A stretch of DNA of 64,000 bases from Bacteroidales bacterium (GTDB taxonomy: Bacteria; Bacteroidota; Bacteroidia; Bacteroidales; JAADGE01): positions 65,116 through 129,115 of the forward strand of contig JAKISF010000003.1 in the NCBI GenBank assembly GCA_021648725.1, in the 5' to 3' direction. Below the pieces are notes generated by a model, which saw only the letters and a program-made list of their open reading frames with translations, made no database searches and was not told the DNA's origin. A program made the translations under genes and the position numbers. Below are positions 4,087 through 62,509 of this stretch, in pieces. Positions within the stretch are counted from its first letter, which is position 1; every line of letters starts with the position of its first letter.

Positions 4087-4091
4087 TCACA

Positions 4092-4176
4092 TTAATCAGG
4101 GGTGCCTTAAATTACAGGCTGAGATTAGACCCTTTGAACCTGACACGGATAATGCCGACGCAGGAAGATAGCCTAA
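4092..4176 (+). promoter_or_regulatory. TPP (THI-box) riboswitch aptamer
   Basis: Conserved THI-box blocks are read directly from the sequence: CAGGGGTGCC...GGCTGAGA...ACCCTTTGAACCTGA.ACGGATAATGCCG.CGCAGGAAG. Confidence 0.85.
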
Positions 4177-4194
4177 TCTGTTCAAATATTATTT

Positions 4195-18763: not shown

Positions 18764-18851
18764 GGAGAGGTGTCCGAGTGGCTTAAGGAGCACGCTTGGA
18801 AAGCGTGTGTGCATATTACGTGTACCGAGGGTTCGAATCCCTCTCTCTCCG
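18764..18851 (+). tRNA. tRNA-Ser (anticodon GGA)
   Basis: Hand-folded cloverleaf. The acceptor pairs GGAGAGG with TCTCTCC. The anticodon stem is CACGC/GCGTG with loop TTGGAAA. There is a long variable arm and a T-arm GAGGG-TTCGAAT-CCCTC. No CCA is encoded. Confidence 0.9.
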
Positions 18852-39627: not shown

Positions 39628-40515
39628 ATGCCTATATCACACGAATTTGAATATTTTAAACCAAAAAACATAGAGGAGGCAGTTAAACTGTTAGGCAAAA
39701 ATCCTGAAAATACAAAAATAATAGCAGGAGGAACAGATTTAACGGTACATATTAAAGAAGATGTTATTGCACCGGATATTCTTATTGACATAAAGGCAAT
39801 TCCGGAATTTAAGGATATTTCTTTTAAAAATAATATTTTGTCGCTCGGAGCAAACGTAACTTTTTCTGAAATTGAAGAAAATGAACTTATAAAAAATAAT
39901 TTCAGAGTTCTTTGGGAAGCTGCATCAACAGTTGCATCAATCGGTGTTCGTAACAGAGCAACTTTGGCGGGAAACATTTGTTCGGCGGTTCCTTCTTTGG
40001 ATTCTGCACCGGCACTATTTCTTTATGATGCTGAAATATATGTTAAAAGTGCTGAAAATAAACGAATTATTCCAATTGAAGATTGGTTTACGGAACCTAA
40101 AAAACCTTCATTGAGAAATGATGAAATTCTTACAAAAATTGTTTTAAAATTTCCTGAAACGAAATCTGCAAGTTGCTATAAAAAACTTGGGAGATATAAA
40201 GGAGAAGATTTAGCACAAGTAGGCATGGGAGTTTTAGCATTAGAAAATAAGCAATACAAAATTGCCGTTTGTGCCGTAGGACCGGTTCCGAAAACAGCTA
40301 AAAAAACAGAAGCGTTTCTGAACGGAAAAGAATTAACAGAAGAAAATATCAAGCAAGCACAAGATATACTTACAACTGAAATTTCTCCGATAACAGATAT
40401 AAGAGCAACAAAAGAATACAGAACACATATTGCAAAAGTAATGTTAGAAAGAGGATTAAAAGAAAGTGTAGCTTTACTGGAAGGTCAAAAAGTTAAATCT
40501 GATCCGATACTGTAA
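39628..40515 (+). CDS. molybdo-hydroxylase FAD-binding (medium) subunit, CoxM/XdhB-like
   Basis: The N-terminus F.YFKPKNIEEAVKLL, IIAGGTDL and ATLAGNI motifs match the FAD_binding_5 family. Confidence 0.85.
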   Translation: MPISHEFEYFKPKNIEEAVKLLGKNPENTKIIAGGTDLTVHIKEDVIAPDILIDIKAIPEFKDISFKNNILSLGANVTFSEIEENELIKNNFRVLWEAASTVASIGVRNRATLAGNICSAVPSLDSAPALFLYDAEIYVKSAENKRIIPIEDWFTEPKKPSLRNDEILTKIVLKFPETKSASCYKKLGRYKGEDLAQVGMGVLALENKQYKIAVCAVGPVPKTAKKTEAFLNGKELTEENIKQAQDILTTEISPITDIRATKEYRTHIAKVMLERGLKESVALLEGQKVKSDPIL

Positions 40516-40610
40516 ACCTTGCAGGGTCGACAGACCTGCAAGCGTTTATTTAAAAAGAAATGTTTTAAACAATTTACGCTGTGAGGTTAAAAAAACACTC
40601 ACAGGAAACA
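40515..40610 (+). repeat. two-hairpin module A1-B1 (left copy)
   Basis: Hairpin A is CTTGCAGG/CCTGCAAG (40518-40541). Hairpin B is CTGTGAG/CTCACAG (40579-40604). The module repeats at 41286-41412. Confidence 0.8.
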
Positions 40611-40613
40611 AAA

Positions 40614-41285
40614 ATGGAAATTAAGCAACCTATTACATGCGGAAATTTTTTTCATATCTATAACAGAGGTATTAACAGTTGTGTTATATTTAAGAATAAA
40701 GAAGACTTTTATCATTTTTTAAAGTTATATAAGATTTACTTTGCTTCTGTTGCAGACACTTTTGCATGGTGTTTAATGTCAAATCATTTTCATTTACTTG
40801 TGAAAATAAAAGAATATAACGAGATAGCTTGTTTAAAACCCGAAAATAAAGATTTTAAAGGTTCCAGAAAATGGGAAGTGTTTTTTCCTGACGAAAGTTA
40901 TTCTGATAAAAAATTATTAAAATTAAAAAAACCTGTACCGGAAAAACAACTTTCACATTTATTTAATTCTTATGCAAAATGGTATAATAAAAAGTATAAT
41001 CGAACAGGTAAATTATTCGAGACACGTTTTGAAAGAATTTTAATAAATAATGAAAAATATTTAAAGGATTTGATTTTTTACATCCATAATAATCCTGTTC
41101 ATCATAATGTAGTAGGAAAAATTGATGAATACAAATGGACTTCTTATATGACAATTTTATCAGATAAAAGGACAAATTTAGAAAGAGAAACAGTAATAGA
41201 TTGGTTTGAAGATATTGATAATTTTAAATATTATCATAACAGAAATAGTGAATTAAATGAAATTGAAAATTTACTTTTAGAATAG
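40614..41285 (+). CDS. RAYT-like HUH/Y1 transposase (IS200-like fold, REP-associated tyrosine transposase family)
   Basis: FFHIYNRG N-terminus, HUH motif SNHFHLLV and catalytic Tyr context YIHNNPV. The start was trimmed from the track GTG (40581, inside hairpin B) to the ATG at 40614. Confidence 0.8.
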   Translation: MEIKQPITCGNFFHIYNRGINSCVIFKNKEDFYHFLKLYKIYFASVADTFAWCLMSNHFHLLVKIKEYNEIACLKPENKDFKGSRKWEVFFPDESYSDKKLLKLKKPVPEKQLSHLFNSYAKWYNKKYNRTGKLFETRFERILINNEKYLKDLIFYIHNNPVHHNVVGKIDEYKWTSYMTILSDKRTNLERETVIDWFEDIDNFKYYHNRNSELNEIENLLLE

Positions 41286-41412
41286 AACCTTGCAGCGTCG
41301 TTAGACCTGCAAGCGTTAGCGTTTGCAAATAATAAAAACAGTTTTTAATTTTCGCTATTATCAAAATAAAATATTTACGCTGTGAGGTTCAAAGAACACT
41401 CACAGGAAAACA
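41286..41412 (+). repeat. two-hairpin module A2-B2 (right copy)
   Basis: The hairpin A block at 41286-41317 matches the left copy at 29 of 32 positions. The hairpin B block at 41374-41410 is near-identical to the left copy. The A-B spacer is longer and unrelated. Confidence 0.8.
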
Positions 41413-44240: not shown

Positions 44241-44535
44241 ATGAAAACAACAAACCCAACCAAAGAACAAATTCAAAGCACTAAAAACCGGAGAACATGA
44301 CAAAAAAATATCTGAATTCTCTTGGAAATACCACGAAAAAGAAACCCTGTTACATAATTGAAAGAGAAGCAAAAGTCACAACAAAAAACGGATAAAAAAT
44401 TACATTTTCAAAAGGCAGTTAGGTTGAATTTTAAAAAGAGTTAAAATGTATTTGTAAAATTACAAAAGATATTAAAAAAAAATGCTCGGATAAGAACTTT
44501 TTGCATGAAATCTAAAACTCTCATATCCACACTTT

Positions 44536-44779
44536 TAATTAGGGCTTGCTGAAAAGTTCACAGGCACATTAGATTTCAAGTTTCTCGTTTGAAGTCGTAT
44601 ATAAATACTGCGAAATAAGAGAAATTTGAAAGATAGTGTGCCTGTGGGCAGCTAAAATATTTTACACAAGTGCAGGGAAATAGGGTGAAATGAATAAAGA
44701 CCTTGCACTTGTATATGTAAATAATCTTATAAATGACTGAAAAATAAATATATTAGCGTTTTTCAGCAAGCCCTAATTA
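44536..44779. repeat. 244-bp structured element with 20-bp perfect terminal inverted repeats (MITE-like, or a structured RNA gene)
   Basis: TAATTAGGGCTTGCTGAAAA (44536-44555) is the reverse complement of 44760-44779. Nested inverted repeats are CACAGGCACA/TGTGCCTGTG and ACAAGTGCAGG/CCTTGCACTTGT. Confidence 0.75.
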
Positions 44780-44790
44780 TTGCAATATTT

Positions 44791-45405
44791 TTGCTGAGTT
44801 TTAATTTAAGAACAAACGGTGACTGGAAACTTGTAAAAAATAAAGACGGAATAAAAGCATATACAAGAAAAGTTGAAAATTCCGATATAAAACAAGTAAA
44901 AGTAACAGCAAATGTTAAAAGCAATTTAACGGCATTAGTTGCAATTGTCAGAGACGTAAGTTCTCATACAAGATGGATATATAGATGTGAAACAGCAATA
45001 AATTTAAAGACGGTCAGCGAAACAGAACACTATTATTACAACGAATCAGAAGCATCTTGGTCTGTAAGTAATCGAGATATTATAACACATGCTGTTATTA
45101 GGCAAGATGCAAAAACGAAAATTGTTACTATTAGTTCAACAGGTATGCCGAATTTTATCAGAAATATTGACGGAATTGTTCGAATACAAAAACTAAATGC
45201 CCAATGGAAATTTACTCCGGAACCAAACGGGACTGTTGATATTGCATTTACACTTCTTATTGACCTCGGAGGAGACCTGCCTGCATGGATTGTTAATATG
45301 GCAATTGCCGGCGGACCTTTTGAAACCGTAAGAAATATGAAAACTGAAGTTCAAAAAGCAAAGTACCAAAATACAAAGTATGGTTTTATAAAAGAATTGA
45401 ATTAG
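44791..45405 (+). CDS. START/SRPBCC-domain lipid-binding protein (start codon uncertain)
   Basis: The DWKLVKNKDGIKAYTRK... pattern is typical of bacterial START domains. Only a TTG start is available, and the frame stays open upstream into the repeat element without any ATG. Confidence 0.55.
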   Translation: MLSFNLRTNGDWKLVKNKDGIKAYTRKVENSDIKQVKVTANVKSNLTALVAIVRDVSSHTRWIYRCETAINLKTVSETEHYYYNESEASWSVSNRDIITHAVIRQDAKTKIVTISSTGMPNFIRNIDGIVRIQKLNAQWKFTPEPNGTVDIAFTLLIDLGGDLPAWIVNMAIAGGPFETVRNMKTEVQKAKYQNTKYGFIKELN

Positions 45406-45517
45406 TGTCCGGTAAAAAATAACTTTTATTTGAATTACTCTAAAACATAACCAAATATAATTAACCTTACCCGAAAATATTTACAAGAAATTTTAAATAC
45501 AATAAGTGAATTATTAT

Positions 45518-45525
45518 TAAATTTG
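45518..45525 (+). promoter_or_regulatory. -7 promoter box TAAATTTG
   Basis: The TAnnTTTG match overlaps the track TTG start, so the gene start was moved to the ATG at 45550. Confidence 0.4.
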
Positions 45526-45549
45526 TACAAATTCAAAAAATTTACACTT

Positions 45550-46347
45550 ATGAAATTTCTAAAAAGTATGCTATTGATTTTTAATTTAAAATCAATTATT
45601 GTGATTACTTTGGCTATGGCCTCAACCTATGCCTGTATATATTTCGATTACAAAGCAAATTTCCCGTTAACATTAGTCGGAATTGCTGTTGTATTTCCGA
45701 TTGTATTTTCGATTAGCGGAGCCTATAAACGAAGAGAAGATGCGTTGAGACTATACGGAACAATTAAAGCTCACGGAAGGGCACTATATTATGCTTCAAG
45801 AGATTGGGTGCCGGATGAAGATGACAAATATCAAGAGAAATTAAAAGGCTTATTAAGTGAATTTCTAAAAGGTTTAAGAGATTACTTTCAGGCAGATAAT
45901 GAAGCAGAGAGGGATGAAAAAGAAAAAAATATTTATAAAGTGTTCACAAAGCTTTCCTTATTTATAAAGCAATATAGAGACAGAGGACTGGCAAGCGGCG
46001 AAGTTTCCAGATCAAACCAGTTCCTCAGTAAAATAATTGATGCATTTGAGAGCATCAAACATATTTATCAATACAGAACCCCGATTACTTTAAGATCTTA
46101 CAGTAAAATATTTGTAGTATTAGTGCCGATTGTGTACGGCCCTTATTTTGCTCATATCAGTAAAGACATTACAATGTGGCTGGCTATGATAATGCCTATT
46201 TTATTCAGCATTGTTTTAGTAAGTTTAGACAATATTCAAGACCACCTTGAAAATCCTTTTGATCAAGTCGGTGAAGATGATGTGAAAATCAATGCAGAGA
46301 AATTTGTAGAGAATCTTGAATATTATAAAGATTTACCGGTTGTTTAA
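45550..46347 (+). CDS. bestrophin/UPF0187 (YneE)-like membrane protein
   Basis: Has TM helices near both ends and a C-terminal LENPFDQVGEDDV motif resembling the bestrophin-family E.PFG..NDL signature. Confidence 0.5.
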   Translation: MKFLKSMLLIFNLKSIIVITLAMASTYACIYFDYKANFPLTLVGIAVVFPIVFSISGAYKRREDALRLYGTIKAHGRALYYASRDWVPDEDDKYQEKLKGLLSEFLKGLRDYFQADNEAERDEKEKNIYKVFTKLSLFIKQYRDRGLASGEVSRSNQFLSKIIDAFESIKHIYQYRTPITLRSYSKIFVVLVPIVYGPYFAHISKDITMWLAMIMPILFSIVLVSLDNIQDHLENPFDQVGEDDVKINAEKFVENLEYYKDLPVV

Positions 46348-46543
46348 TTCGAATTACCCAATTAAAAATTCCGGTTCCGACAGTTTAATTTTTAGTTTGC
46401 TTATTATTTTTTTCAGGGAAGGAAACAGAAACTGTATTAGTCTGACATCAATTTCACAACAAATCAACAGTATAGAAACTTTTGCAACATTAACAAAAGG
46501 TTGTAATATCAAATGATTAAGATTGGTCATTACCTAATAATGA

Positions 46544-46682
46544 AGATGTGCCTGTGGGCAGCTAAGGCATTTTACACAAGTGCAAAGGGTTAAGTGAATT
46601 AAAAACCTTGCACTTATATATGCAAAAGGTCTTGTAAGTAACCGAAACATAAATGTATTAGTGTTTTTCAGCAAGCCCTAAG
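46544..46682. repeat. 5'-truncated second copy of the 44536-44779 element
   Basis: Shares GTGCCTGTGGGCAGCTAA, ATTTTACACAAGTGCA, CCTTGCACTT and TTTTTCAGCAAGCCCTAA blocks in the same order and orientation. The left arm is absent. Confidence 0.75.
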
Positions 46683-60545: not shown

Positions 60546-60580
60546 ATATTTATAAAAAAAGGCAACTTTTCGTTGCCTTT
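60546..60580. repeat. 35-bp target-site duplication, left copy (contains a terminator hairpin)
   Basis: ATATTTATAAAAAAAGGCAACTTTTCGTTGCCTTT is identical to 62475-62509. Confidence 0.85.
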
Positions 60581-62474: not shown

Positions 62475-62509
62475 ATATTTATAAAAAAAGGCAACTTTTC
62501 GTTGCCTTT
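62475..62509. repeat. 35-bp target-site duplication, right copy (terminator hairpin with intact T-tract)
   Basis: Identical to 60546-60580. Here the GGCAAC/GTTGCC hairpin is followed by a run of nine T. Confidence 0.85.

Follow-up and report, generated by a model that had tools for sequence, protein, structure and literature searches.

Correia elements of Neisseria and ERIC sequences of enterobacteria (tabulated in PMC3184786) are MITEs that, once transcribed along with adjacent genes, function as RNA hairpins. Both are small IS-like repeats with inverted termini, both are found in intergenic transcripts, and in both importance is attributed to the folded RNA. The MaeMITEa-h families of Microcystis (PMC2779907) and Nezha, a MITE of Anabaena and Nostoc (reviewed in PMC3184786), are short and non-coding, carry the terminal repeats of resident ISs between flanking direct repeats and have stable predicted folds; Nezha is linked to ISNpu3. 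ISMae6 is a published 1686-bp IS5-family element of Microcystis aeruginosa (PMC2779907). ISMae6 and its relatives, which PGAP labels ‘IS5-like element ISMae6 / ISAcma17 / ISLca3 family’, have the termini TTAGGG(C/T)TTGCTGAA(A/T)A and TAA-TTA flanks.

The window analysed here, a stretch of 64,000 nt from a Bacteroidales MAG, contains a 244-bp element with termini and flanks like those of the ISMae6 family (Table 1). In common with ISMae6 it has a subterminal TGCA..TGCA palindrome that starts at nt 70 counted from the transposase-proximal end [partner arm 32 nt further in]. Unlike ISMae6, which comes from a cyanobacterium, measures about 1.69 kb and carries a transposase gene, the element has no transposase gene and possesses an extra long palindrome, hairpin 1. 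The MaeMITEs and Nezha resemble it in the properties listed above, Nezha by description and not by sequence. Microcystis units with the family termini (L006 and L103) are 198-218 bp long, close to the 219 bp of MaeMITEa (PMC2779907), a likeness by length alone. Cyanobacterial members of the terminus family have internal tandem heptamer repeats where Bacteroidota members have hairpin 1. Correia and ERIC are unrelated to the element in sequence; the shared theme is the strand-specific pairing of hairpin 1 together with the co-orientation of a neighbouring gene, which by analogy would point to a role as RNA.

We conclude, with a probability of about 0.9, that the 244-bp element is a MITE, a non-autonomous derivative of a widespread ISMae6-like IS of the IS5 family. 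It is ordinary mobile DNA, neither a new RNA nor a gene cassette. The unit is non-coding, with no internal ORF of 60 aa or more, and lies well within the size of a MITE (under about 600 bp); it has terminal inverted repeats, its termini match those of an IS, a target-site duplication flanks it and copies occur at unrelated loci. The initial annotation had listed a MITE-like non-autonomous element among its candidates, and this one is borne out by the IS5-family termini, the duplicated flanks, the presence of other copies at unrelated loci, and the reconstruction of an intact gene from the filled site. Its remark that no transposase accompanies the copies also holds: no IS5-type transposase is encoded in the 64,000-nt window. 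As neither the element nor the rest of the window encodes one, the element is an IS derivative and not an autonomous member of the IS5 family.

Table 1. Features of the 244-bp element, its truncated relative and the interrupted gene (positions in the window).
Feature	Position	Strand	Description
START-domain gene, 5' fragment	44505..44541	+	ATG 44505 and first 12 signal-peptide codons (MKSKTLISTLLI), cut by the insertion
START-domain gene, 3' part	44780..45405	+	Deposited 204-aa product from TTG 44791; Pfam START 1.6e-13
Left flanking repeat TAATTA	44536..44541	.	Fits TA-N-TTA, N = A; left target copy
Left terminal inverted repeat core GGGCTTGCTGAAAA	44542..44555	+	IRR-type end, transposase-start-distal in parent IS
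Hairpin 1, long imperfect palindrome	44556..44651	+	Specific to Bacteroidota MITE lineages; absent from parent IS
Hairpin 2, ACAAGTGCAGG ... CCTTGCACTTGT	44666..44712	.	Inherited from parent IS
Right terminal inverted repeat core, TTTTCAGCAAGCCC on + strand	44760..44773	-	IRL-type end, transposase-start-proximal in parent IS
Right flanking repeat TAATTA	44774..44779	.	Second copy of duplicated target
Second copy, truncated and diverged	46544..46681	+	Right arm of hairpin 1, hairpin 2 (46576-46617), IRL-type terminus (46665-46678), TAA

The perfect 20-nt terminal inverted repeat described at the outset (44536-44555, the reverse complement of 44760-44779) is confirmed. It contains the conserved end of a very large IS family, the 17-mer TTAGGGCTTGCTGAAAA, which on the left (44539-44555) consists of the terminal core and the TTA that precedes it. 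The 17-mer occurs three times in the window, against 0.45 expected by chance (up to 3 mismatches). It matches the terminus of a full-length IS (locus L079) at 17/17 nt and that of ISMae6 at 15-16/17 nt; in the L079 IS the transposase gene has its stop codon about 19 nt inward of the IRR-type end. Both flanks of the element are TAATTA. Among the matches listed, TA-N-TTA stands on both sides, N is identical in 30 of the 36 complete units (14.1 expected) and the whole flanking 6-mer is the same on both sides in 25 of them. Duplication of 2, 4 or 6 bp gives the same empty site, and the duplicated target is given here as TAATTA without an exact length.

At least 120 loci carry the exact 17-mer terminus; a few of the listed matches fall inside long ORFs, where they may be due to chance. 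Because the family was gathered with the exact 17-mer, ascertainment accounts in part for how well the terminus and the left TTA are conserved. Full-length units are 1.66-1.73 kb long, have inverted termini and encode a protein of 491 aa that reaches 438.7 bits with NCBIfam transpos_IS5_1 (cut-off 275; L079 transposase) and also matches Pfam DDE_Tnp_1_2 and DUF772; among the matches listed, a transposase gene lies beside the terminus at 13 loci. In an annotated ISMae6 copy of 1688 bp (L125:470-2157) the termini differ at 1-2 positions, the flanks are TAA-TTA, and the hairpin-2 box stands at nt 70, followed by its partner 32 nt further on. Of the 36 complete units, again among the matches listed, about 30 are 175-350 bp long and have the same termini (Cyanobacteria and Bacteroidota). 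Relatives of about 270 bp occur in the cultured strains Indibacter alkaliphilus LW1 and Cecembia lonarensis LW9 and in Algoriphagus. Public data yielded only four copies of the exact sub-family of the window element. One is L102:4832-5079, which is 90.8% identical and lies in an unrelated context; L121:1520-1848, likewise in an unrelated context, was the sole addition from a metagenome scan with a sub-family-specific pattern. Literature searches with the terminus sequence matched unrelated primers only.

On this reading the element is a non-coding deletion derivative of an ISMae6-like IS5-family member that has kept both terminal inverted repeats recognised by the IS5-type DDE transposase. Hairpin 2, the subterminal palindrome adjoining the transposase-proximal end of the parent IS, has been retained as well, and hairpin 1, a lineage-specific long palindrome, has been gained in addition. 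A transposase acting in trans would move the element, with insertion at TA-N-TTA sites that would then be duplicated on either side. A large protein search with the transposase was saturated by close relatives, mostly unnamed or cyanobacterial. The Bacteroidota loci retrieved contained no ISMae6-like transposase (tblastn with the L079 transposase; ORF inspection inward of solo termini), and since the window has none either, the trans-acting partner in the Bacteroidota lineage is an assumption.

The filled site was compared with an empty site reconstructed by in-silico excision, and with uninterrupted homologues. At the level of sequence, this comparison shows the intact copy to be inserted at codon 12/13 of a gene for a START-domain lipid-binding protein. 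Read without excision, the frame from ATG 44505 reaches a stop inside the element after 15 codons. Removal of 44542-44779 (the element and one TAATTA) joins this frame to the ORF that starts at 44791 and yields a 220-aa ORF. The restored N-terminus, MKSKTLISTLLIIAIFLLSF, is colinear without gaps with 15 homologues [for example P0026, MKSKTLISVFLIFAIFQLSF], and the N-terminal region of the restored gene is gap-free at the DNA level too. P0001 is 100% identical to the called 204-aa product; most homologues have about 219 aa. The deposited START protein is thus the tail of a split gene whose true product has 220 aa and a signal peptide. As the insertion cuts the remainder off from the start codon and from most of the signal peptide, the gene is either inactivated or gives a product without signal peptide. 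The initial annotation had placed each copy 15-55 nt upstream of a + strand gene and had the two copies flank exactly two genes. The next called ORFs begin after gaps of 11 and 51 nt, and as the true start codon lies upstream of the element, the full copy sits inside the first of these genes and does not bracket it.

A partial second copy had also been reported, reproducing the right-hand part in the same orientation 1.9 kb downstream (46544-46682), and it was found again. A repeat comparison aligns it with the full copy at 84% identity over 82 nt and at 92% over 38 nt, and a profile search places it at 46539-46682. It has lost the left terminus and the left arm and loop of hairpin 1, and is immobile as it stands. 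Its identity is 84.6% to the full copy and 86.8% to L102. Given this divergence, with the truncated copy closer to L102, which lies in another genome, the pair does not represent a recent duplication; the second copy, in the spacer between the bestrophin-like and thioesterase genes, is an older, independent insertion that has lost its left half.

Alternatively, START and the bestrophin-like gene could have arrived together as a cassette, the two copies being scars of recombination or the ends of a composite transposon. Two ORFs do lie between two copies that point the same way, the outer termini (left of copy 1, right of copy 2) make up an inverted pair at a distance of 2143 bp, and the gene order around START differs from that of relatives. 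However, copy 1 has codons 1-12 of START on its left and the rest of the gene on its right. Taking out this copy by itself makes the gene whole again, which marks copy 1 as a simple insertion into a START gene at its native locus. TAAGAT, the sequence to the right of copy 2, is not a repeat of the left flank of copy 1, and the divergence of the copies, with the truncated one closer to L102, also speaks against a composite transposon. START identity among the relatives compared is no more than 64-79%, and at that distance differences in gene order are expected anyway. In these relatives the genes after START are of the 3beta-HSD and steroid-dehydrogenase types, not bestrophin-like; START and bestrophin are not a conserved pair and hence do not form a two-gene cassette. 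The proposal of scars delimiting such a cassette, made in the initial annotation, is highly improbable on these grounds. Even less weight, next to none, is given to a REP/BIME-type repeat moved by the RAYT-like tyrosine transposase whose gene lies 3.3 kb upstream (40581-41285). REP/BIME repeats are short tagged palindromes that also occur in the flanks of a RAYT gene, and they lack both long terminal repeats and target duplications. The RAYT-like gene (NCBIfam REP_Tyr_transpos 5.5e-12, below the family cut-off) is flanked by palindromic repeats of its own, and the element is rich in hairpins. However, the RAYT-flanking hairpins, CTTGCAGG-N9-CCTGCAAG and CTGTGAGG...CTCACAG, share no repeat family with the element in a whole-window repeat search, the element's long (20-nt) terminal inverted repeats and flanking duplications are typical of DDE transposition, and its ends belong to the IS5 family.

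A structured ncRNA or cis-regulatory leader family, another candidate of the initial annotation, is very unlikely as the identity of the element; on that view it would control the downstream genes, the inverted termini serving as a closing stem. The folds are indeed very stable, the stems show compensatory changes, the G·U-type pairs of hairpin 1 are strand-specific and the element is co-oriented with neighbouring genes. Against this, the supposed closing stem is the terminal repeat of ISs that encode a transposase, target duplications flank the element, copies adjoin unrelated genes and the full copy lies in a coding sequence, not in a leader. A signal scan of the element found promoter-like and terminator-like signals at no more than chance level. 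No Rfam family matches the element at gathering or relaxed thresholds: at gathering score the whole window contains only a TPP riboswitch and a tRNA, and a relaxed search on the element region gives as its best matches microRNA models that fall far short of their thresholds. The IS link, the target duplications and the Rfam result lead us to reject a 6S-like or other ncRNA. Effects at the RNA level may occur only as a secondary property of what is a mobile element.

The nested inverted repeats noticed at first are the arms of hairpin 1 (44559-44586 and 44619-44646; 28 nt, 86% complementary), and the second stem, in which ACAAGTGCAGG (44666-44676) pairs with CCTTGCACTTGT (44701-44712), likewise holds as hairpin 2. 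The hairpin-2 palindrome, TGCAAG...CTTGCA, is present in the parent IS from about 68-70 nt inside the transposase-proximal end; its box and geometry are common to the full-length IS copies L079 and L087 and to ISMae6, and a box with an exact inverted partner occurs at 11 termini against 0.06 in shuffles. On the + strand the whole unit folds at -101 kcal/mol (z = -12.9), on the - strand at -86 kcal/mol; for hairpin 1 by itself the values are -48.6 kcal/mol (z = -11.1) and -31.7 kcal/mol, respectively.

Hairpin 1 is held by compensatory changes across seven copies. In these seven sequences, several of them closely related and the same from which the structure was derived, 93.4% of cells are paired and 19 pairs have both sides changed; none of 500 shuffles reaches the observed values, and slid controls give 32-43%. 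The pairing is strand-specific, with 32 G·U-type cells against one A·C cell, and the 5'-side neighbour gene is co-oriented with the element in 7/7 independent copies. The earlier impression that stems are conserved over loops is therefore correct, the compensatory changes running across lineages, although this is a property of the MITE family and not of the locus. The selection on structure that had been deduced from it gains some support from the compensatory changes, the strand-specific G·U-type pairs and the uniform orientation. We infer with moderate confidence that a strand-specific constraint acts on hairpin 1 as a nucleic acid in single-stranded form. This would most simply be RNA, with the element transcribed from the neighbouring gene as Correia or ERIC elements are. 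More tentatively, hairpin 1 could serve as a functional module that is strand-specific: in host transcripts as an RNA hairpin, such as a 3'-end stabiliser or a terminator, or else as a single-stranded-DNA structure linked to the direction of replication. If so, selection would explain the upkeep of compensatory and G·U-type pairing on one strand, the uniform orientation with the 5' gene, and the persistence of the element where the autonomous partner was not found. The strand-specific upkeep of hairpin 1 would make the element a modest test case for MITEs kept for RNA structure in bacteria.

The IS/MITE family with the 17-nt terminus breaks many metagenome assemblies of Cyanobacteria and Bacteroidota at contig ends. 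Its members can be spotted by a simple signature made up of this terminus, flanks of the form TA-N-TTA and the nt-70 hairpin.

The 244-bp element at 44536-44779, in a Bacteroidales genome, is a MITE that belongs to the ISMae6-like IS5 lineage; its full copy splits a START-domain gene, and only a remnant is left of the second copy. The initial annotation had described terminal repeats that are perfect reverse complements, nested inverted repeats, a second hairpin and a second copy, in the same orientation, of the right-hand 140 nt; all of these are present, the inner repeat measuring 28 nt. Three occurrences of the terminus were counted in the window, where 0.45 would be expected from chance matching. 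The unit folds with -101 kcal/mol (+ strand) and -86 kcal/mol (- strand), z being about -12.9 for each against shuffled sequence. A known structured RNA family, which the annotation had wanted checked, is not what Rfam returns, the element having no match at either the gathering or the relaxed threshold. At the gathering threshold, Rfam detects nothing in the window beyond a TPP riboswitch (69.8 bits) and one tRNA whose variable arm is long.

Features of the window, with coordinates
Feature	Coordinates	Sequence or basis
Terminal repeats, full copy	44536-44555 / 44760-44779	
Inner repeat of hairpin 1	44559-44586 / 44619-44646	
Hairpin 2, full copy	44666-44712	
Partial copy	~46544-46682	
RAYT-like gene (+)	40581-41285	
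RAYT-flanking repeat pair 1	40515-40546 / 41286-41317	CTTGCAGG..CCTGCAAG
RAYT-flanking repeat pair 2	40566-40608 / 41367-41409	CTGTGAGG..CTCACAG
Perfect 35-nt direct repeat	60546-60580 and 62475-62509	ATATTTATAAAAAAAGGCAACTTTTCGTTGCCTTT
TPP riboswitch / long-variable-arm tRNA	4088-4183 and 18764-18851	Rfam, gathering threshold

A scan for the exact 17-mer TTAGGGCTTGCTGAAAA of the terminus in one genome per species gave at least 120 loci, those listed belonging chiefly to Cyanobacteria and Bacteroidota but also to Nitrospirota, Ignavibacteria and other groups. Many of the listed loci are no more than ~100 nt away from a contig end, the usual position of a repeat at which assemblies break. When loci are oriented by the 17-mer, the outer flank nearly always ends in TA-N and the inner side continues with AAGT or similar. 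Five fetched loci contain units of 1.66-1.73 kb between inverted termini. One of them, L079, has a unit whose 491-aa product reaches 438.7 bits against NCBIfam transpos_IS5_1 (cut-off 275) and also matches Pfam DDE_Tnp_1_2 and DUF772; a transposase gene of this type lies directly inside the terminus at 13 loci. The nearest annotated plasmid relatives are labelled 'IS5-like element ISAcma17 family' and 'ISMae6 family', and the ISMae6 copy in locus L125 measures 1688 bp and has TTAGGGTTTGCTGAA(T/A)A as its termini. ISMae6 is an IS5-family element of 1686 bp with 8 copies in M. aeruginosa NIES-843, a genome that holds hundreds of MITEs as well (PMC2779907). Neither the window nor any fetched Bacteroidota locus yielded an ISMae6-like transposase, and the large transposase protein search (at least 7995 clusters with E ≤ 1e-40) was filled by close, mostly cyanobacterial relatives. 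Mobilisation of the element in trans in the Bacteroidales lineage, and its copy number in the source genome, are what we infer. A Cronbergia locus fetched for the 17-mer begins with a CRISPR-like array (L116:1-300, repeat ATTGCAATTTCATTAACTCCCTATTAGGGATTGAAAC).

Complete units in the fetched loci number 36, ~30 of them 175-350 bp long. Their literal flank pattern is TA-N-TTA [GGGCTTGC...GCAAGCCC] TA-N-TTA; the two sides agree in N in 30 units (14.1 expected by chance) and in the entire 6-mer in 25. Two units have longer duplicated strings, read by eye: TAAATTA (L071) and TAGACTTA (L115). The near-invariant TA and TTA could be part of a preferred target or of the repeat tips, and several duplication lengths fit, since cuts duplicating 2, 4 or 6 bp all predict one empty site. 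The full copy in the window has TAATTA on both sides, as does ISMae6. The earlier proposal of a MITE-like non-autonomous element is thus borne out by IS5-family termini, by these flanks and by MITE-sized relatives. A sub-family copy in a Bacteroidetes MAG (L102:4832-5079), 90.8% identical over its full length, sits between unrelated genes and has a decayed left terminus; a fourth copy, from a metagenome (L121:1520-1848), has additional sequence in the loop of hairpin 1. The partial copy in the window shares 84.6% identity with the full copy and 86.8% with the L102 copy; the pair in the window therefore goes back to separate insertions that have since diverged, and no recent duplication produced it.

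In a Prolixibacteraceae MAG (L101:~100-2480), terminus-like sequences at ~312, 981, 1674 and 2365 nt from one 17-mer recur with a period of ~690 bp, which suggests an array of related units. At L121:176-1537 an IS110-family element (ORF 484-1479; Pfam DEDD_Tnp_IS110 and Transposase_20) lies within the MITE terminal repeat, inserted at GGGCTTG(C)^CTGAAAA. A MITE of another type, in a different genome (L041:~150-200), has this foreign end, identical over at least 50 nt, joined to it at the corresponding position. The 5' non-coding region of the IS110-family element carries TTAAGGGCTTGCTAG (L121:336-350), which is almost identical to the element's target and may be an IS110 bridge-RNA target loop, for which such a sequence would be expected.

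An ATG at 44505, upstream of the element, opens MKSKTLISTLLI in a frame that enters the element and stops after 15 codons. In-silico removal of 44542-44779 (the element and one TAATTA) gives a 220-aa ORF in frame with the called START ORF. Frame agreement by itself has a one-in-three chance, and the reconstruction was therefore tested against homologues. The START relatives (n = 36) are mostly ~219 aa long and many span the entire reconstructed protein; the sole 204-aa entry is the window's own deposited product (P0001, Bacteroidales MAG). The reconstructed N-terminus aligns without gaps to 15 homologues, e.g. P0026, MKSKTLISVFLIFAIFQLSF, and the excised DNA to three uninterrupted genes, which places the element within the START gene at codon 12/13 of the signal peptide. 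The intact remainder of the ORF suggests a fairly recent insertion. Readings of the two copies as a composite transposon or as recombination scars delimiting a two-gene cassette, the latter put forward in the initial annotation, fail because START is continuous across the full copy; the bestrophin-like neighbour is, moreover, absent from all three relatives' loci (L122, L123, L124). At L122:1490-2817, two START-domain genes of 219 aa each stand in tandem, and one of them is the closest uninterrupted homologue (P0002, 79% identity). In L123 and L124 a Methyltransf_32 gene comes before the intact START gene, and 3beta-HSD-type and steroid-dehydrogenase-type genes come after it.

The two hairpins differ in origin. 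In the full copy the transposase-proximal (IRL-type) end lies on the right. A palindrome, GTGCAAGGG...CCCTTGCAC, begins ~70 nt inside this end of the L079 IS, upstream of the transposase start, and the same box is found in L041 and in ISMae6 (start at nt 70, partner 32 nt later). Box and exact inverted partner occur in 11 fetched termini (shuffles average 0.06), from full-length IS copies and MITEs and with both phyla represented; for nine, the box begins at nt 68-70 and the partner follows 32 nt deeper. Hairpin 2 was thus inherited from the parent IS, and may be a cis site for transposition or transposase expression. At the other (IRR-type) terminus of the L079 IS the transposase stop codon is ~19 nt from the end, leaving no room for hairpin 1, which is therefore not IS-derived. 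The ~270-bp Bacteroidota MITEs (Algoriphagus, Indibacter, Cecembia and a Cytophagales MAG) share the whole architecture of the window element, whereas cyanobacterial MITEs of this terminus family have tandem heptamers just inside the IRR-type end, at the position of hairpin 1. The heptamers (GGAGACA, GGGAACA, GGCAACA, GGAGTCA) fall within the first ~80 nt inside the terminus in L003, L012, L018, L057, L089, L096 and other cyanobacterial loci.

What merits follow-up is that hairpin 1 is kept, and oriented, in a strand-specific manner. In the consensus structure of a seven-copy alignment, a small sample of partly related sequences, 93.4% of cells are paired and 19 of 39 pairs are changed on both sides; none of 500 shuffles attains these values and slid controls are 32-43% paired. 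When the pairs are held constant, G·U-type cells in hairpin 1 number 32 (16 distinct states) and A·C cells one; for its contiguous outer stem, where columns cannot be selected, the counts are 21 and 0. Folding energies of hairpin 1 in the window are -48.6 kcal/mol (+ strand) and -31.7 kcal/mol (- strand), an asymmetry that hairpin 2 of the window lacks. All seven copies with a close 5' neighbouring gene point in the same direction as that gene, L121 being left out of the count because what adjoins it is an IS that has inserted within the element. These observations, on few and partly related copies, point to constraint on a single-stranded form of hairpin 1, for which RNA is the simplest reading. 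A DNA-level explanation of the strand bias is also compatible, because transcription and replication directions correlate in bacteria. No promoter-like or terminator-like signals above chance were found in the element.

Elsewhere in the window, a RAYT-like gene (NCBIfam REP_Tyr_transpos 5.5e-12, below the family cut-off; Pfam Y1_Tnp weakly) separates the FAD-binding subunit gene from the 2Fe-2S subunit gene in a xanthine-dehydrogenase-type operon. It is flanked by two direct-repeat pairs (40515-41409 in all), each repeat itself a hairpin, and pair 2 duplicates sequence just upstream of the next start codon. The two occurrences of the 35-nt repeat, 1.9 kb apart, include a small GC hairpin with T-rich flanks and are terminator-like in appearance.
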